Source: a virus (taxonomy: Duplodnaviria > Caudoviricetes). Taken from it: 64,000 nt of DNA. Below the pieces are notes generated by a model. The model made no database searches and was not told where the DNA came from. It saw only the letters and a list, made by a program, of their open reading frames with translations. The DNA lies in IMG/VR virus record IMGVR_UViG_3300033486_000001, positions 11,317 to 75,316 of that record; one strand, written 5' to 3'. Positions 55,889 to 63,701 of this stretch are shown piece by piece (position 1 is the stretch's first letter; every line of letters starts with the position of its first letter). The position numbers and the translations under genes are program-made.

Positions 55889-58033
55889 ATGCAAGCTTTG
55901 GCCAAAAATGCCGCACCAGCACCCGTCACGGAAGATGACACCATCATCGATGGCGTTCTTGCGTCAGAAGCGATCGACAAGTCCGGTGAAGTGCTTGATG
56001 TGGATGGCTGCGACATCACTGAATTCGATGAAGGTCGCGGACTCATCAATTACGAGCACAAGGACACCGGCCCGCAAGACATCATCGGAAAGATCCTTTA
56101 CGCCAAGAAAATCTTTTCCGCCAAAGATTGCATTAACGATCGTCAACGCAAGTACTGGGATGACCTCAAGCTTCCACTGATTTACGGCATCGTACGTCTA
56201 GCTGATGGAAGTGGACACTCTGGCGCCATCGCCGCCGCCGCCCGCATCCGCGACGACGTCAAACACAAAGAGCAGTCCAGGTGGGGCTTCTCGATTGAAG
56301 GTACGACCATCAAGCGCGATACCAAGACAGGCCGACTTCTGGTTTCCATCGCCAAACGATGTGCGCTCACCTTCAAACCGTGCAACGAAAGCGCCGCAAC
56401 AGGACTCATCTTTGACCCAGGCGCCAAGTCCGACTTGTTCCGCACTGCACCGTCAGAAGCTGCCTTTGTTGGCGGAGAAGAACTCGCCAAGACCTTCGCG
56501 GCTGGATCTATGGACGTCGCTCCATCGCAACTCACGGGTAATGCAGCGCTAGCGGTAGAAGACTTGGGTACCAGAGGCAAGCTGAGGTGGGCGCTGAGTA
56601 AGTGGGATCGCAAAACCCCACTTAAGTCGTTTCTCAAAATGCAAATGCCTGAGGCGGATCCGGCCTACCTAGACAATTTTGCCGACATGGCGGAGCGGTA
56701 CACAATCCGCAAGGCGCAAGAGTTGGCCGTCAAGAAGCACCTAGTCAAGTCTGTGGCTACAAAGGTGCTCGCGAAGGCGATCGACCAACACCGGGCAGAC
56801 GCTAAGGCGGCGATCATTGCCAAGATGGATTTGATGGGGGTTGAACTCCTAGAAGCCCTACAAAAAGCCGATCCACCCAAACCCGCGCCGTCAAGGGTGG
56901 GGCCGGTCGTTCGCAAGGCATCACCTCCAGAACCTGAAACTGTTACATTCAACGGTCGCACCGTCAAGCCGGGATTTGCTATCGCCGGTGAAGGCGACAA
57001 AAAGCAGCATCTACGCGTTCTCGAGCACACCCCGGAACACCTGATCGCCATCCCTAAAGAGAAAATCGGCGGCTGGCAAGCGTCGGATCTGCTCAAGCTT
57101 CCGCGCAACAAGGTCCCGGGCAATATCTGGATGACCCGCCCGCCGGAATACGTCAATACCCCAGCTGTAATCGATTCGAAAACCCACGGGTTGGTCGATT
57201 ACACCCACCACCCAGAAGTCCACGCGTTAATCCACGGTCTGGATATGGGTCAAGCAATCAAAACTGGTACGGTAGGCATGAAGGCGAAAGCCGGGCAAGC
57301 CGGCTGGGCGAAGAATGCTCAAGGTAAGCAAGTGTACGTCAAGCGAGACGACAACGAACGTCCCTTCGGAGAATCCAAGCGTGAGGCGCTGTACCACAAC
57401 CTCGCCAAAGACTTTTATGGGATGGGGAGGTACGTTACACCGACCGCTGCAGTGGTACACCCGACTACTGGACAACACTACACGGTGGTGGAACACACAC
57501 CGGGCGAGCACTTCAAGCACGGCGAGGGGCATCCGGAGATGTTGCAGAACTTGGCAGATAGCGGAGAACTCCACAAACTCGCCATCATGAACTCCATAGC
57601 ACATAATAACGATCGCCATCAGTTCAACTATATGCTTGATGACAAGGGCGGGATTAAGCTGATCGATCACGGATTGACTTTTAGTGCCGGAGGAGACAGC
57701 AAAGCTCCGACTACACCGCACTATCTGATAGATGGCGCAGGAAAACTCCCTAACCATCCAGAGGCGCAGAAGTGGGCTAACAAACTACTACACCCAGAAG
57801 CCCAAAAATGGCTGCCTAGGATGAACGTCCTCGTTCACCCTGAAGCCCAAAAGTGGTTAAGCAAACTCAAGCCGGCTGAGCTGGAACGCCAGATGAGTCA
57901 ACACGGTGTCCCACCAGAGTTCGTCCAAGAAGCGTCCAGACGTTTACAGGCGATTCAAAAACACGCTCAAGTCAATCCGAAAGCTAAGTTGTATCAGGCC
58001 TTGAACGCCCCCTTCGAAGGTGGTACAAAGTAA
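55889..58033 (+). CDS. prohead protease fused to a HipA/PI3K-like kinase domain
   Basis: N-terminus IDKSGEVLDVDG, INYEH (H57), GFSIEG (S135); C-terminus VYVKR (K485), REAL, NDRHQFN (D575), LIDHG (D593). Confidence 0.85.
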   Translation: MQALAKNAAPAPVTEDDTIIDGVLASEAIDKSGEVLDVDGCDITEFDEGRGLINYEHKDTGPQDIIGKILYAKKIFSAKDCINDRQRKYWDDLKLPLIYGIVRLADGSGHSGAIAAAARIRDDVKHKEQSRWGFSIEGTTIKRDTKTGRLLVSIAKRCALTFKPCNESAATGLIFDPGAKSDLFRTAPSEAAFVGGEELAKTFAAGSMDVAPSQLTGNAALAVEDLGTRGKLRWALSKWDRKTPLKSFLKMQMPEADPAYLDNFADMAERYTIRKAQELAVKKHLVKSVATKVLAKAIDQHRADAKAAIIAKMDLMGVELLEALQKADPPKPAPSRVGPVVRKASPPEPETVTFNGRTVKPGFAIAGEGDKKQHLRVLEHTPEHLIAIPKEKIGGWQASDLLKLPRNKVPGNIWMTRPPEYVNTPAVIDSKTHGLVDYTHHPEVHALIHGLDMGQAIKTGTVGMKAKAGQAGWAKNAQGKQVYVKRDDNERPFGESKREALYHNLAKDFYGMGRYVTPTAAVVHPTTGQHYTVVEHTPGEHFKHGEGHPEMLQNLADSGELHKLAIMNSIAHNNDRHQFNYMLDDKGGIKLIDHGLTFSAGGDSKAPTTPHYLIDGAGKLPNHPEAQKWANKLLHPEAQKWLPRMNVLVHPEAQKWLSKLKPAELERQMSQHGVPPEFVQEASRRLQAIQKHAQVNPKAKLYQALNAPFEGGTK

Positions 58034-58035
58034 CC

Positions 58036-59223
58036 ATGGACGCTTCCAACATCATAATGGTGTATCAGACCCACCCGCACGAATCGGGTGAAATCCATCA
58101 CGTTCTTGTGGCTAAACTCCTGCAAGTTCCTGGCCAGACCACGGTTTTGGAGGATCACACCCCGGATCACACATTCGATGAGGCTGCTGTAGATCCAGTC
58201 GCGCTAACCTCGAAGCTTAATGCAGCTCGCCGTTCGATGTACTTCAAGGTGTGCACACTTCAAGAACTCAACGAGGGTGAATACCCGGAACTTTTGTCGG
58301 AGGCGTTGCTGCCGCCAGCACACGGTCCCGAGTCTCGGTTCGATTATTTCCGCATTGGAATGCCGCAGCCGCAGATGTTGGAGTTCTATGAAGGTGAAGG
58401 TCATTTGGACGGACACCCATTGTCGGATGAAGAACTACAGCTCATCCACTCGAACATTGAGCAGGGTTTGGCGTCGCTCTCGTACCACAAGGACGAGCCT
58501 GAGTTGATTTCGAAGTCGGAGGACCTGGCGAAGGTCGAGCCTGGTCTGGAGGCAGCACTAGGTGGCCTCAGGGCTGCAGTGGCAGCTGGCCATGTGCACC
58601 CGGATGTTCTCAAGACACTGTCCGGGCATATTTTCAAGGATACCATGGTGCCTACATTAGGCAACAAGGTAGCATACGCAGACTTCCTTACCCGCCCGAA
58701 AGAGGGGGTTCATATTCGACTCGATGGGTCAAAATTCGGCGGCATCAATAAGCGCGCCGGATTTGAAACCGGCAACGAAGCGATTAAGTCTATGTTCGGT
58801 GCCGTTCGCTCAGCCCTCGACGAGAGTGTGGGACGGAAGCACGCCAAAGCCTTCAGGATCGGTGGGGATGAAGCGAGTCTTTTTGTACCCACCATTGAGC
58901 ACGCGGCTATGTTTCATCGCGCCCTTAAGCGCCATCTCGACGCTCTACCGTTAGTGGCCGGACAGAAGTTGGCGTTTGACATGGGTGTAGGTAAGACGCC
59001 AGAGGCTGCAGAGCAAGGTCTAATCAAGGCCAAGACGCATGGGAAGTCGATGAACTATCCACTACACGAGTTGCGCACACATGCCTACATCAATATCCCA
59101 GGACACGAAGGGCATTTACCTACAGAGATAGAGCAGCCTCCGAAGACTCCAGCGCCGACACCGACTCCGGCACAGCCAACGGAGAAGCCCGCCGAGCCAG
59201 CCACTTCAAAACCTGTTGGGTAG
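58036..59223 (+). CDS. GGDEF-like nucleotide cyclase domain protein in the head module
   Basis: DTMVPTLGNK, RLDGSKFGGIN (D230, N238), GFETGN (N247), FRIGGDEA (G276-A280), FDMGVG. Confidence 0.75.
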   Translation: MDASNIIMVYQTHPHESGEIHHVLVAKLLQVPGQTTVLEDHTPDHTFDEAAVDPVALTSKLNAARRSMYFKVCTLQELNEGEYPELLSEALLPPAHGPESRFDYFRIGMPQPQMLEFYEGEGHLDGHPLSDEELQLIHSNIEQGLASLSYHKDEPELISKSEDLAKVEPGLEAALGGLRAAVAAGHVHPDVLKTLSGHIFKDTMVPTLGNKVAYADFLTRPKEGVHIRLDGSKFGGINKRAGFETGNEAIKSMFGAVRSALDESVGRKHAKAFRIGGDEASLFVPTIEHAAMFHRALKRHLDALPLVAGQKLAFDMGVGKTPEAAEQGLIKAKTHGKSMNYPLHELRTHAYINIPGHEGHLPTEIEQPPKTPAPTPTPAQPTEKPAEPATSKPVG

Positions 59224-59238
59224 TTCCATGGGCCCCGT

Positions 59239-59274
59239 CGTTAATTAAAAAATCCGACACTTTTTTAACTAACG
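59239..59274. terminator. AT-rich hairpin between convergent transcription units
   Basis: CGTTAATTAAAAAA-tccgacac-TTTTTTAACTAACG, 14-bp stem with one mismatch. Confidence 0.5.
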
Positions 59275-59299
59275 CCAGCTCTTAGTAAAGTGGCCTTTA

Positions 59300-59572
59300 T
59301 TAAGACCGCCGGGCTTTTTCGCAAGTCTTACATCGCGACTGGTGCTTGTTGAAATGTAATAACTCGACTTCCACTGAGTGGCACGTGGAGCACTCCTTGA
59401 GCCCCATGGCGCGCATGCACTGCCTGCAAATGCCGTTACACCCGCAATGCGCCGGTAGATGGCATTCCTTGCACATGGTGATGTGAAAACCTTTGGATAC
59501 CGCCAGTTGATTCCGCTTGCAACGTAAGCAGGTTCGGCCGGGGTATGTGTCGTGACATGTGCGGCATCTCAT
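59300..59572 (-). CDS. Cys-rich putative zinc-finger protein
   Basis: Multiple CxxC pairs; ATGA overlap with the tnpB stop. Confidence 0.55.
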   Translation of the reverse strand: MRCRTCHDTYPGRTCLRCKRNQLAVSKGFHITMCKECHLPAHCGCNGICRQCMRAMGLKECSTCHSVEVELLHFNKHQSRCKTCEKARRS

Positions 59573-60675
59573 TGAGCCGCCTCGAGGAATTCTTTAGACT
59601 TATAACAGGTAGCCTCAACACTTCCGATCAATACCGACCCGGCTCCTTCTGCAAGGGCTTGGTGTTGCAAGCCGCGTTGCAAGATGTTGATTGCTGAGTT
59701 CACATCCCTGTCAAGGAATGCCCCACAATCGCACATCCATTCACGCTTATTCAAACCCGCCAATCCTCTCGGACCGGACTTTAGTCCACAAATGTGGCAA
59801 GTTTGGGTTGTAAAACTTTCGTCGACTTCCTTGTATATCGCGCCATTCCCAATGGACTTGTAGCGCAACATCTTACGGAAGTTAGACCAACCTACGTCAA
59901 GAACCGACTTGGCCATGGTGGTCTGAGACAATTTGCTAGATGAAACGTCTCCTACGAAAATATGGTTGTACTTCTTTGTGACGTCATTGGACAACTTGTG
60001 ATGAAAGTCTTTGCGGACATCCTTAATCTTTTGGTGAATTTTGCGGACTTGCTTGCGCTTGTTGGCGCGTTGCGCGATCGCGAGTTTACGGGCGTATTTA
60101 GACAATATGCGCGGATTGGCGATTTTAGTGCCATCAGAAAACGTAGCGAAGTTTTTGAGGCCGAGGTCGATGCCTACCGATGCGTCGCCGCTGCGCAATG
60201 AGGTTTCTGGGAGTTCAATGACAACATTCAGAAACCATCGTCCTTGCGAATCTTGGCTGAAACTGGAGCCGTACAGAATCCTTGCTTCTGTCGGAAGCGG
60301 ACGATCTGAGAATACTCGGAAGACGTGTCCCATAAAAACAAAGCTGCCGTCCCGATATTTTAAGGCAGCCGCCTTCATTGGAATCCACCCTAGACTTTTC
60401 TTCCCGCGCCACTTCAGCCAACGCTTATTACACTTAGCGCGACTTTGAACGTATTGTCTAGCTATTGCTTGAATCGAGTCGGAGTGTAGTCCGAGTTCCT
60501 TGGAACTCCCCGCCGTGAGGTGGTTCAAATCGAACTCGCCGAGCCATTTGCGACGAGCCTTAACTGCTTGCTGCTGCACATTGTTACAGTAGTTCCACAC
60601 AAAGTTGACCTTACGGGCGAGTCCGTTAAGAAACCCTTCGTAAGACTTGACTCTGTAGTGGTAGGTGAGTTGCAT
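59569..60675 (-). CDS. tnpB: TnpB RNA-guided endonuclease (IS200/IS605/IS607 family), no transposase adjacent
   Basis: VNFVWN, GRWFLNV, RuvC-I GIDLG, RuvC-II region FVGDV, VDESFTTQTCHIC, RuvC-III DRDVNSAINIL; ATG start at 60675. Confidence 0.92.
   Translation of the reverse strand: MQLTYHYRVKSYEGFLNGLARKVNFVWNYCNNVQQQAVKARRKWLGEFDLNHLTAGSSKELGLHSDSIQAIARQYVQSRAKCNKRWLKWRGKKSLGWIPMKAAALKYRDGSFVFMGHVFRVFSDRPLPTEARILYGSSFSQDSQGRWFLNVVIELPETSLRSGDASVGIDLGLKNFATFSDGTKIANPRILSKYARKLAIAQRANKRKQVRKIHQKIKDVRKDFHHKLSNDVTKKYNHIFVGDVSSSKLSQTTMAKSVLDVGWSNFRKMLRYKSIGNGAIYKEVDESFTTQTCHICGLKSGPRGLAGLNKREWMCDCGAFLDRDVNSAINILQRGLQHQALAEGAGSVLIGSVEATCYKSKEFLEAAQ
59573..59800 (-). ncRNA. predicted TnpB omega/reRNA (scaffold overlapping the tnpB 3' end, plus guide); boundaries approximate
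   Basis: TnpB omegaRNAs are known to overlap the 3' end of tnpB; segment 59614-59597 matches 60804-60821 at 16/18 nt. Confidence 0.45.
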
Positions 60676-60683
60676 TGACGATA

Positions 60684-60712
60684 CGTATACCACTCCGGTC
60701 CGCCACCGTCAA
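60684..60712 (-). promoter_or_regulatory. sigma70-like promoter of tnpB
   Basis: TTGACG-17 nt-(GTGG)TATACG, 8 nt before the ATG. Confidence 0.6.
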
Positions 60713-60801
60713 CCCACAAAACGCAAAAAGTGGGACTTTTCCATCCAACTCAACCATTAATACGTACCAAAGTTCAGACCTACGGGTCAAGGAGTACCAT
60801 A

Positions 60802-61248
60802 ATGGCTACCTGCTACAAGTCGGAAGTCCTCGCCGCGCAACTCAAGGACAATCTCTCGAAGTTCTTCGCCACCGTTTCTGAAGTTCTGTACCACACCGAT
60901 GGCACCCCCTATGTCACCGTCGGCGCAATGACCACGGGCACGCAGTCGGCTCTCGTTCGCATTTTCGCAGTTCAGCCCCTGGGTGTTGATGGCCTTGGCC
61001 AGACCCCTCGAAGCTTCGGCCCGAACTCGGTCCAAATTGCACTCGAGACGAGCGCAACCGCAAACCTCGCATTCCTCACTGCGGCCAACTCGGCGCTTCT
61101 TCTCCTTGAGGCCGGCAAGACTGGCGCCAAGGTTGAGTTGTACATGCGCGCAACTGGCACGCCTCCTGCCATCACAGACATCGTTGCAGGCAACCTGAAG
61201 GCGGAGTGGTACACCTCGACGAAGTGGAAGATGGCGTCCGCGAGCTAA
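60802..61248 (+). CDS. putative virion head protein, first gene of the scaffold-capsid unit
   Basis: AAGGAG RBS before ATG at 60802 (MATCYKSEVL); composition and position. Confidence 0.7.
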   Translation: MATCYKSEVLAAQLKDNLSKFFATVSEVLYHTDGTPYVTVGAMTTGTQSALVRIFAVQPLGVDGLGQTPRSFGPNSVQIALETSATANLAFLTAANSALLLLEAGKTGAKVELYMRATGTPPAITDIVAGNLKAEWYTSTKWKMASAS

Positions 61249-61273
61249 CCCCACGGAAGCTCTAGGAGAAACC

Positions 61274-62206
61274 ATGAAGATTAAAGAATCAGAACTCAAA
61301 GCAATTCTTGATGAGGTCGCAGCCGACCTCAGCAAGTGCTTCGAGGAAGAGAAAGAAAAGCTGACCAAGTCTTTTCCGGAAGGTAGCGCGTCCGAGGGCT
61401 CGTCTAGTTCAGACGAGAGCTCGAAGCCTGCAATCCCGGAAGGTAGCTCGTCTGAAGGCTCGTCTAGCTCGGATGAGGACTCGAAGGCTGACGGTTCTGT
61501 TCCTCCCCCGCCCCCAGCAGCTTCGCCTAGCCCAGCGGCTTCGCCGAGCGCGACAGCACCAGTTGCACCTCCTGCAGCACCGCCCGTAGCCGACCCGGCA
61601 GCTCCTGCCGCCGACGCCACGGCAGTTACGCCGGAAGTGTTGCACTCTGAGTATCTCAAGATGATGCAAGAGGATCCCGCACAGTTCGCGATGCACGTGC
61701 AGGCACTTGACGCAGTGAAGGCCGCAACAGCAGGCACTTCGCCTAGTCCCTCCCCCGCTCCCACAGCCCCAGTTGCTCCTCCTACGGATACACTGAAGGC
61801 AGAACTTCCCGCCAGCCCAGAACGAGCCGGTGGCGTCAAAGTGGAAGCCGTCCACAAGTCGGAGGATGTAAGCCGGTTTGAGTCGCTCATGAAGTCCTAT
61901 GAGTCGAAGGTAGCAGAACTCGAAGCCAAGCTCAAGAGCCAGGCTGATGAGCAAGTTGCCGTACAGCAAGTGTTGACCCGTATCGTCGAGCGCCCCATGC
62001 GCAAGTCGATCGAGTCAATTGCACAAGTCAGCTCGCCCGTCAAGGCAGTCGACGTGAGCAAGATGTCTAAAGAGTCCATCTCGACACGCCTCAGCGCCGC
62101 AGCACGAACCAACCTCAAGAAGTCCGATCGCAGTCTCATCAACGCTTACTACGGCGGGGAAGCCAAGCTCGAGCAGCTGGCCCACCTTCTCGAAGAAGTC
62201 AAGTAG
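61274..62206 (+). CDS. capsid scaffolding protein
   Basis: Low-complexity Ser/Pro/Ala, coiled coil, many xxK|S motifs; directly upstream of MCP. Confidence 0.65.
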   Translation: MKIKESELKAILDEVAADLSKCFEEEKEKLTKSFPEGSASEGSSSSDESSKPAIPEGSSSEGSSSSDEDSKADGSVPPPPPAASPSPAASPSATAPVAPPAAPPVADPAAPAADATAVTPEVLHSEYLKMMQEDPAQFAMHVQALDAVKAATAGTSPSPSPAPTAPVAPPTDTLKAELPASPERAGGVKVEAVHKSEDVSRFESLMKSYESKVAELEAKLKSQADEQVAVQQVLTRIVERPMRKSIESIAQVSSPVKAVDVSKMSKESISTRLSAAARTNLKKSDRSLINAYYGGEAKLEQLAHLLEEVK

Positions 62207-62230
62207 TACCAAGTTTTAAGGAGAATTACC

Positions 62231-63622
62231 ATGTCAGAAGTTACCCAAGCACTACTCAAGTCGTTGGAAGCCGGCAATTACGACGCGGCTCCCTCTACCC
62301 TTACGCAGGGCGCAGCACTCCAGCGTGAGGATCTCACCCCCATGATGGTCAATTTGTGCTTCGAAGACCAACACGTCAAGTTGCAGAACAAGCTGACCGT
62401 CAAGAAGGTGAAGAGCCTGATGTCGCAGTTCAACCGCACTCTGAGCTACGGCCAGATGGGCGACAGCGCGCAGCTCGAAGGCGCCGTTGGCCAAGACGAC
62501 AACGCAGACTACGTGAGAATTACAGTCCCGATGGCGTTCTACGCTCAGGTCCGACGCGTGTCTTACGCTTCGACCTTGATTGAGACGGCAGACGGCGTTG
62601 ATGCTCAGACGCGCGCTTCCGAAGCAGCAGCAATGGTCATCAAGGGCGACGTTGAGTTCGATTGCTTCCGCGGTATGGAAGGCTTCTCGAACGCAGGCGT
62701 TTTCGATGGCAATGAAATGGCTCAGCCTATGGTCCCCGGCATGAAGGGCCTGGATCAGCAGATTCGTTCGAGCGATTCCGAGCGTAATGCACACGATCTG
62801 ATGTTCGGCGAGTACGGCGCTGATGACTCGGTTGTCATCAACGGCGGCAGCTACCTCAGCCAGACCAACGTTGAGGACGCAACCCTCCGCAGCAGCATGA
62901 ACTGGGGCAATGCGACCAAGTTCCTGCTCGATCCCAAGACCCTCTCGGCGTACAACCTGATCACCCTCGGCAAGGAGCGCATCAACCTCGGCTCCACGGC
63001 GCAGGATGTCACTGGTTCAGAGCTTCGACGGCAGTTCACGTCGAGCGGCACTGCAACGTTCGAGCCCAGCCGCTTCCTCTCCGGCAAGACCAAGCCCAAG
63101 AATCCGAAGCAGGGTGGTCCCTCGGCTCCTGCCGCTGTGACTGCTACCCCTGCGGGCAGCACCACCAGCTTCCCCGCTGGCGATTACTGGTACTTCGTGA
63201 CCAGCGTCAACGAGATGGGCGAGTCTCCTCGCACTGCCATCGCAGCAGCAGCAACTGTTGCGGCGGCCGGCCAGGTCACCCTCTCCATCACCTCGCCTGG
63301 TACGGGCACGGTTCGTTACTTCAACGTGTACCGTAGCGTTGCCGGTGGAAGTCTCGCTTCGTGTAAGTTCATCGGCCGCGTGGCTGTGAGCAACACGGGC
63401 ACCACAAGCTACCTCGATCTAAACAATAGGAATCCGGCGTATACGACTGGATTCCTCGTGGACTTCGACTCGATGGACCTTGCCGAATTGGCCTCGTATT
63501 CGAAAGTTAAGCTGGCTATTCAGGACCTGAGCTTCCCTGAGGCTCACCTCCGATTCCTCGCTCTCCGAGTCTTCAAGCCCCGCGTCAACGTGCTCGTCGA
63601 CAACCTGATGGGTCGTAACTAA
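62231..63622 (+). CDS. major capsid protein (SPO1/Herelleviridae-like)
   Basis: LLKSLEAG..GAALQREDL, LEG..DYVR.TV.MAFY..RRVS, FN3-like insertion PSAPAAVTAT..YWYFVTSVN..FNVYRS. Confidence 0.85.
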   Translation: MSEVTQALLKSLEAGNYDAAPSTLTQGAALQREDLTPMMVNLCFEDQHVKLQNKLTVKKVKSLMSQFNRTLSYGQMGDSAQLEGAVGQDDNADYVRITVPMAFYAQVRRVSYASTLIETADGVDAQTRASEAAAMVIKGDVEFDCFRGMEGFSNAGVFDGNEMAQPMVPGMKGLDQQIRSSDSERNAHDLMFGEYGADDSVVINGGSYLSQTNVEDATLRSSMNWGNATKFLLDPKTLSAYNLITLGKERINLGSTAQDVTGSELRRQFTSSGTATFEPSRFLSGKTKPKNPKQGGPSAPAAVTATPAGSTTSFPAGDYWYFVTSVNEMGESPRTAIAAAATVAAAGQVTLSITSPGTGTVRYFNVYRSVAGGSLASCKFIGRVAVSNTGTTSYLDLNNRNPAYTTGFLVDFDSMDLAELASYSKVKLAIQDLSFPEAHLRFLALRVFKPRVNVLVDNLMGRN

Positions 63623-63645
63623 GTAGAATCGTTGAAGTAATTCAT

Positions 63646-63681
63646 GGACCCCCGAGAGAAATCTCGGGGGTCTTGTCGTTT
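63646..63681 (+). terminator. rho-independent terminator after MCP
   Basis: GACCCCCGAGA-GAAA-TCTCGGGGGTC followed by TTGTCGTTT. Confidence 0.8.
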
Positions 63682-63691
63682 CTGTAGGGGT

Positions 63692-63701
63692 GTGGTATAG
63701 T
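63692..63701 (+). promoter_or_regulatory. extended -10 motif GTGGTATAGT
   Basis: 7 nt before ATG 63709; TTGTCG at 17-nt spacing. Confidence 0.55.

Follow-up and report, generated by a model that had tools for sequence, protein, structure and literature searches.

A phage-borne TnpB whose guide copies the start of a neighboring head gene: a candidate RNA-guided homing or exclusion nuclease

IMG/VR record IMGVR_UViG_3300033486_000001 is a 75-kb contig of an uncultured phage (Caudoviricetes) of wetland origin, estimated to cover 46% of a genome of roughly 160 kb, and we analyzed a stretch of 64,000 nucleotides of it (the window). On the minus strand of the window, a tnpB open reading frame (ORF) lies between a Cys-rich gene and a conserved 148-amino-acid (aa) gene of the head module (Table 1). 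The 148-aa gene opens a block with a scaffold-like gene and the major head protein (phrog_752, 1e-43) downstream. The tnpB ORF, for which the ORF finder gives an alternative GTG start at 60693, runs through the scaffold and the guide template of its putative guide RNA (omegaRNA), and its terminal TGA overlaps the ATG of the Cys-rich gene. The guide resembles the start of the 148-aa gene, which lies 105 bp from the cassette edge, beyond the end opposite to the guide and in inverted orientation. No consensus promoter was called in the divergent region between the two genes. A first-pass annotation of the window had reported a solitary tnpB, and indeed no Y1 transposase TnpA (PF01797) was found on the 75-kb contig, which holds ~46% of the genome. 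The left end is nearly absent, with homology to tnpB-less relatives restarting ~24 bases upstream of the tnpB ATG, and the cassette shows neither the left end abutting a target-adjacent motif (TAM) nor the insertion without deletion of a mobile IS200/IS605 element. Judged from its sequence, the cassette is an immobilized TnpB-omegaRNA unit, transposase-less and nearly without a left end. Its best reading would be a free-standing RNA-guided homing or exclusion nuclease, to which we give about an even chance.

Table 1. Features of the tnpB locus in the window and mismatches of carrier alleles to the guide
Feature	Position	Strand	Basis
Cys-rich 90-aa gene	59300..59572	-	Its ATG overlaps the tnpB stop (ATGA)
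tnpB ORF, 368 aa	59569..60675	-	From ATG at 60675; ORF list, Pfam, phrog_506, PDB, dN/dS
3' remnant of displaced 114/135-aa gene (KEFLEAAQ-stop) and ribosome-binding site of next gene	59569..59593	-	Near-identical to L092 and L002
Predicted guide template, copy of codons 2-7 of 148-aa gene	59597..59613	-	Match to gene; kept across carriers
omegaRNA scaffold, 3' part, overlapping tnpB 3' end	59614..59800	-	Consensus fold of four elements; conservation ends at 59614
RuvC-III D-R-D motif, residues 322-324	59704..59712	-	Invariant in 46/46 relatives
CxxC...CxC zinc finger	59725-59799	-	Invariant in 46/46 relatives
Substitute Glu, residue 286, V-D-E, just before zinc finger	59818..59820	-	Invariant in 46/46 relatives
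Gly at canonical RuvC-II Glu position, residue 242, V-G-D	59950..59952	-	Gly in 42/42 relatives
RuvC-I Asp, residue 170 in GIDLG	60166..60168	-	Invariant in family alignment
Divergent promoter/leader region	60676..60801	.	60700-60801 common to tnpB-less relatives
148-aa head-module gene, conserved, function not assigned	60802..61248	+	Synteny in 9 relatives
ATG of 148-aa gene, putative TAM	60802..60804	+	Two sibling empty sites with target directly after ATG
Target-like site, 2 mismatches at guide positions 9 and 12	60805..60820	+	Comparison with guide
Own-allele mismatches, window and L099	guide positions 9 and 12		
Own-allele mismatch, haplotype 2, five contigs	guide position 12		
Own-allele mismatch, haplotype 3, five contigs	guide position 6		
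Own-allele mismatch, L093 against its own guide	guide position 6		

The position of the guide was derived from three elements in other phage contexts (L003, L004, and L005) that share ~80% DNA identity with the window element. The similarity crosses the structured 3' region and ends at a common 12-base terminus, beyond which the sequences are unrelated; in all four contexts, a structured scaffold over the tnpB 3' end is followed by a variable guide. The consensus fold of the four elements contains 53 pairs, 5 of them with compensatory changes, and no omegaRNA family was matched in Rfam (E up to 5). Because scaffold conservation among the four elements stops at 59614, the guide is predicted to start at 59613, from which we count guide positions, one base inside the 18-mer originally proposed. 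The earlier placement of the guide just past the scaffold is therefore supported. The same annotation recognized no canonical IS605 right end, but a right end exists: over its final 12 bases, the scaffold aligns position by position with the terminus that more distant relatives usually have at their right end. The stretch from 59597 to 59700, which includes the guide, has zero variable sites among the compared strain contigs.

Read on the minus strand, the 18-mer at 59614-59597 shares 16 of its 18 bases with that at 60804-60821 on the plus strand; the other two are third codon positions at which the change is synonymous (TGT/TGC and TAT/TAC). Both sequences read as first claimed, and the accompanying estimate of a chance of ~2e-8 per position is arithmetically correct. 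The window was searched after the fact, which speaks for coincidence, but a 16-base guide with at most two mismatches occurs twice in the window against 0.02 occurrences expected from shuffles. Moreover, the match sets in at codon 2 of the gene and at the guide start, which had been derived independently, and it recurs in a second phage species (L093). Chance is effectively refuted as the source of the match between guide and gene.

TnpB restores its own transposon by cutting the vacant joint. The right ends of L003, L004, and L005 close with GTG, TTG, and TTG, respectively, and this triplet is the start codon of a downstream co-directional gene, whose codons 2 to 7 make up the guide; in L106, an independent gene-calling program likewise places the start of the L004-type downstream gene at the right-end codon. 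Two empty sites were found for these siblings. The phage carrying L005 contains an ATG after which 20 bases match the L004 guide perfectly (L076), and the ClpP-like gene of the window has its ATG at 4409-4407 on the minus strand, after which the bases at 4406-4387 agree throughout with the L003 guide. The window flanks are identical to those of L003, indicating that the L003-type insertion is polymorphic among near-identical strains. For the L005 site, the nearest relative is 52% identical, and an empty site is not definable from such a relative. No second match to the guides of L003, L004, or L005 was found within their own loci. Since the target stands right after an ATG in both empty sites, ATG is likely the TAM, which the sibling elements would replace by TTG or GTG. 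The window guide matches the 148-aa gene in the same register, directly after its ATG, and the window element itself has GAG instead of a start codon as the last three bases of its right end.

Genes on which elements of this TnpB family have landed receive a translation start from the right end (L003 5071, L004 5063, and L005 5060). L003 lacks 32 bases of the empty site seen in the window, namely the ribosome-binding site and the ATG. More distant relatives (L033/L054, L026, L035, and L037) have an apparent ribosome-binding site and ATG inside the last scaffold hairpin, about 60 to 90 bases past the DRD motif, an arrangement expected to produce N-terminal fusions. A loose end in the wetland DNA run X2, at window position 59636, represents a further member of the subfamily with an identical scaffold terminus followed by a different guide. 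Because this member carries yet another guide, the wetland phage community appears to contain more insertion sites.

Relatives without tnpB reveal what the cassette displaced. In L002 and L092, whose 148-aa proteins are 81% and 88% identical to that of the window, a minus-strand accessory gene of 114/135 aa stands in place of tnpB, and the gene order, likewise without tnpB, is also retained at a greater distance, in relatives whose major head protein is ~50% identical. Homology of the window to L002 and L092 restarts at 60700 on one side and at ~59593 on the other, and ~350 bp of the accessory gene are replaced by the cassette. Based on these homology limits, the cassette consists of tnpB, the scaffold, and a 17- to 18-base copy of the gene start, set in the shell of the displaced gene. 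The L092 accessory protein ends in exactly the last eight residues of the window tnpB ORF (KEFLEAAQ). The codon-wise similarity that had seemed to continue beyond the guide (EFLEAAQ versus EVLAAQ) is accordingly not derived from the neighboring gene, as 59593-59569 is a remnant of the displaced one. The window tnpB is without the stop kept by its siblings, and its ORF ends at the old stop of the displaced gene (59569-59575). The displaced gene belongs to a family of small paralogous proteins ending in ...NTPPLVK-WL...-M(S/T)L-EFL, with several copies per phage (window 63700-63966 on the plus strand; L002 5538-5882; L004 3231-3527; L092 434-841). On L106, genes adjoining members of this family have faint LRV-repeat matches.

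The encoded protein matches the Pfam domains PF07282 (Cas12f1-like TNB; 4e-19) and PF01385 (OrfB_IS605; 4e-15), both above the curated cut-offs, as well as phrog_506 (2e-68) and solved TnpB structures (PDB 8BF8/8EXA/8H1J; 2e-21). Alignment confirmed that RuvC-II reads V-G-D rather than containing a clear Glu: residue 242, a Gly, aligns to the catalytic Glu in the GTEHL motif of ISDra2 TnpB. The canonical RuvC D-E-D triad is thus lacking, with the RuvC-I Asp and the DRD motif present. In TnpB of the RIIr type, another residue stands in place of the RuvC-II Glu (Gly in the largest group) and a conserved substitute Glu is found, and some rearranged TnpB branches are virus specific (Altae-Tran 2023, PMC10691335). 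The window TnpB combines the change of the RuvC-II Glu to Gly with a conserved substitute Glu downstream, and by sequence its active site has the rearranged RIIr configuration, which is presumably active. The V-G-D reading had been taken as a reason to doubt nuclease activity; as the Gly is family-wide and the substitute Glu invariant (Table 1), this doubt is resolved, and the change does not signify inactivation.

The layout was found in 13 contigs of the window species from several wetland samples, in which the target takes the form of three haplotypes and the guide is identical in every contig reaching that stretch. The second species, L093, has the same arrangement, the same guide-remnant junction, and the same read-through ORF, with a 148-aa protein 82% and a TnpB 79% identical to those of the window. 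Between the two species, the nonsynonymous and synonymous divergences (dN and dS) of tnpB are 0.147 and 1.53 (saturated), giving a dN/dS of 0.10, and within the window species dN/dS is 0.09 at a dS of 0.21. The guide keeps 15 of 17 bases between the species, whereas the post-guide tail is 38%, the left-end stretch 46%, and the leader 69% identical; by our arithmetic, the neutral chance of keeping 15 of 17 bases ranges from ~1e-5 (at the dS of tnpB) to 5e-3 (at that of the 148-aa gene). Since the nuclease and its fixed guide are under purifying selection, acting on guide-like sequences would appear to be the selected function.

The same read-through to ATGA in both species suggests that translational coupling with the Cys-rich gene has been preserved. 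The guide stretch could accordingly be conserved for translation, as a TnpB C-terminal tail (A-T-C-Y-K-S) that brings ribosomes to the start of the Cys-rich gene. Consistent with this, in both species the usual tnpB stop is gone and the frame stays open up to the TGA that overlaps the next ATG, the stretch also reads as a TTG-started mini-ORF in L093, and both bases at which the guides of the two species differ are third codon positions. However, coupling requires an open frame but no particular sequence, and the residues past the guide are not conserved. The base-level identity to the neighboring gene furthermore includes third positions, which shows common descent rather than convergence, and we regard conservation for translation as very improbable.

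A historical footprint would also account for the copied gene start: the element would once have sat at the ATG of the 148-aa gene and moved with 17 to 18 flank bases into the neighboring accessory gene, the guide being a leftover without present targeting. The right-end/guide junction keeps the register seen in the canonical siblings, the 17 to 18 captured bases correspond to the cutting distance of ISDra2 TnpB (15 to 21 bp; PMC8612924), and no susceptible allele was found in IMG/VR or GTDB genomes. We nevertheless consider a mere footprint unlikely. A useless nuclease and guide should decay, yet tnpB has a dN/dS of 0.1 at saturated dS and the guide has been kept at 15/17 bases next to a decayed tail. 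Nor is a footprint a true alternative to a present function, because such an origin story is compatible with one. The sequences suggest that the guide probably did originate from an earlier canonical insertion at the gene's ATG and was carried along as flank. Alternatively, the element may have inserted canonically inside the displaced gene, where tnpB-less relatives contain (A/G)TG followed by the same five bases; such an insertion leaves the next 12 guide bases unexplained, of which 10 to 11 match the 148-aa gene. Rearrangements were also worked through on paper, and neither an inversion between the two arms nor a single inversion starting from a canonical insertion leads to the order now seen while leaving the 148-aa gene intact. 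When the left end was aligned locally with the gene start in reverse complement, the score did not exceed that of unrelated pairs.

In all 13 carriers and in L093, the carrier's own gene differs from the guide by one or two synonymous bases, all within guide positions 1 to 12 (Table 1). In ISDra2 TnpB, double mismatches at positions 1 to 12 abolish cutting (PMC10097598). One interpretation offered in the first-pass annotation was self-regulation of the head operon, in which a TldR-like complex would bind the start of its own 148-aa gene without cutting and tune this gene along with the scaffold-like and capsid genes. The target does lie at the start codon of the first gene of the operon, and both mismatches in the window haplotype would be rU-dG wobbles. 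On the other hand, guide and target do not covary, a check that the annotation itself had proposed: the guide is invariant and the targets vary among haplotypes without compensating change. The mismatches of haplotype 3 and L093, at seed position 6, are C-A and A-G, so that two of the four mismatch types are not wobbles, and the catalytic residues are kept, unlike those of TldR. We find self-regulation quite improbable on these grounds.

The other interpretation offered, a homing or interference nuclease whose own allele has been recoded, fits these observations best. Specifically, the guide would have been redirected away from the insertion joint of the element and toward the start-codon region, with ATG as TAM, of the adjacent conserved head gene, making the cassette an intronless homing or exclusion nuclease whose carriers survive by synonymous seed mismatches, an account that we hold at slightly below even chances. 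The cassette has taken the place of most of a small accessory gene next to the head module, with a guide that copies codons 2 to 7 of the 148-aa gene instead of the cassette's own insertion joint. The TnpB-RNA complex would cut a guide-matching allele in a co-infecting related phage, and repair templated by the carrier genome would bring in the allele of the carrier, mismatched and immune, together with the nearby cassette; failing such repair, the rival phage would merely be damaged. Carriers themselves would be protected through the synonymous mismatches in the first 12 guide positions. Such a cassette could invade or damage every related phage whose allele matches, irrespective of the accessory gene at the insertion place. 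Homing or exclusion is favored because tnpB is under purifying selection, the guide is kept in two species, and every carrier has seed mismatches. It is also favored because the target is a constrained site (a start codon and the first codons) 105 bp from the cassette, because the catalytic set is complete in its rearranged form, and because sibling elements of the same phage population show canonical vacant-allele targeting. The three mismatches of each of the two tnpB-less relatives (L002 and L092) to the window guide, at seed positions 3, 6, and 9, likewise count in its favor.

Several points weigh against a homing or exclusion nuclease. No allele perfectly matching either guide, that of the window or that of L093, was found in IMG/VR and GTDB genomes, both scanned for the exact pattern, or in JGI metagenomes and protein-derived contigs. 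The first-pass annotation had called for such alleles in relatives lacking tnpB, and of the relatives of this kind, L002 and L092, neither has one. Contigs from four wetland DNA runs contained known alleles only and no tnpB-less joint, their uncovered parts being uninformative, and the INPHARED phage collection gave no DNA match. The sequencing runs listed as containing the locus included no RNA run. The scaffold pattern was absent from GTDB genomes and occurred in IMG/VR only at the four known loci. The assignment of ATG as the TAM is drawn from two empty sites, and the ISDra2 figure concerns double mismatches in a TnpB of another clade, whereas haplotypes 2 and 3 and L093 would have to be protected by a single mismatch. 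The carriers' mismatches may be ordinary synonymous drift, and constraint on the peptide would likewise leave the guide differences between the species at third codon positions, as both are. The diversity at the 5' end of the 148-aa gene is one of approximately seven mosaic patches in 5.4 kb and is not target specific. Finally, the rearrangements worked through on paper do not account for the inverted copy of the gene start that lies at the right end.

Strain divergence across 58310-63700 is strongly patchy, with blocks of 10-25% between long identical stretches, a pattern that frequent recombination among co-occurring phages would be expected to leave. An argument from a hypervariable target (7/15 variable sites in the first 33 bases of the 148-aa gene) was dropped, since with more strains compared the variation proved patchy over the whole region. 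Two further genes of the window are kept in the head module of the relatives: 55889-58033 encodes a 714-aa protein with weak matches to head-maturation proteases and to PI3/PI4 kinases, and 58036-59223, which follows it, encodes a 395-aa protein with a sub-threshold GGDEF match. The phage of L002 carries a complete, unrelated IS605 element (L091 1043-2416), in which a Y1 TnpA gene is divergent from that of a 401-aa TnpB with the canonical Glu; this element adjoins a large ribonucleotide-reductase-like ORF that looks intein-holding.

If a homing or exclusion nuclease with a conserved guide against an essential neighboring gene is indeed encoded here, TnpB guides are retargeted in nature, and RNA-guided nucleases can act as free-standing homing endonucleases in phage competition. 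A start codon could then serve as a TAM, which would tie the target to a site that the prey cannot lose. Copying of TnpB after cleavage of homologous DNA of a co-infecting phage is treated as theoretical in a 2026 review (PMC13565253), and our literature search found no described case of TnpB acting on co-infecting phages in this way. The locus lends itself to direct testing, with a single protein, an RNA of ~200 bases, and four naturally occurring alleles set apart by single synonymous bases. Independently of targeting, a subfamily that lands on ATG and leaves a TTG or GTG start would represent a selfish element minimizing harm to its carrier.

The window element belongs to the same family as TnpB of IS200/IS605 elements of the ISDra2 and IS608 type, with which it shares a guide RNA overlapping the tnpB 3' end and a guide templated directly after the right end (PMC8612924; 10.1101/2023.03.14.532601). 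L003 and L004 are canonical in this respect, and vacant alleles in sister phages match their guides perfectly. In contrast, the window contig is without TnpA, the cassette has no recognizable left end, and its guide does not match its own insertion joint but an inverted gene beyond the other cassette end, a target that is present, mismatched, in the carrier itself. With the RIIr TnpB clades, it shares the Gly in place of the RuvC-II Glu and an invariant downstream Glu, a likeness by sequence and description (PMC10691335). TldR proteins, prophage-encoded repressors, are likewise phage-borne TnpB relatives whose guides match a site off their own locus near a gene start (PMC10705468). However, TldR has lost catalytic residues and its guide matches well, whereas the window TnpB keeps the RuvC-I Asp, the substitute Glu, the DRD motif, and the zinc finger, and its own site is always mismatched. 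The closest parallel in working is with the free-standing homing endonucleases SegF, SegG, and MobE of T-even phages (PMC13565253), whose genes are wedged between conserved genes, as tnpB is in the window. Their targets lie in an adjacent conserved gene ~100 bp off, and the carrier allele differs by a few substitutions; in the window, the corresponding values are 105 bp and one or two synonymous differences. Recognition is by protein in the T-even enzymes and would be by a guide RNA in the window phage, so the likeness is one of working and not of homology.

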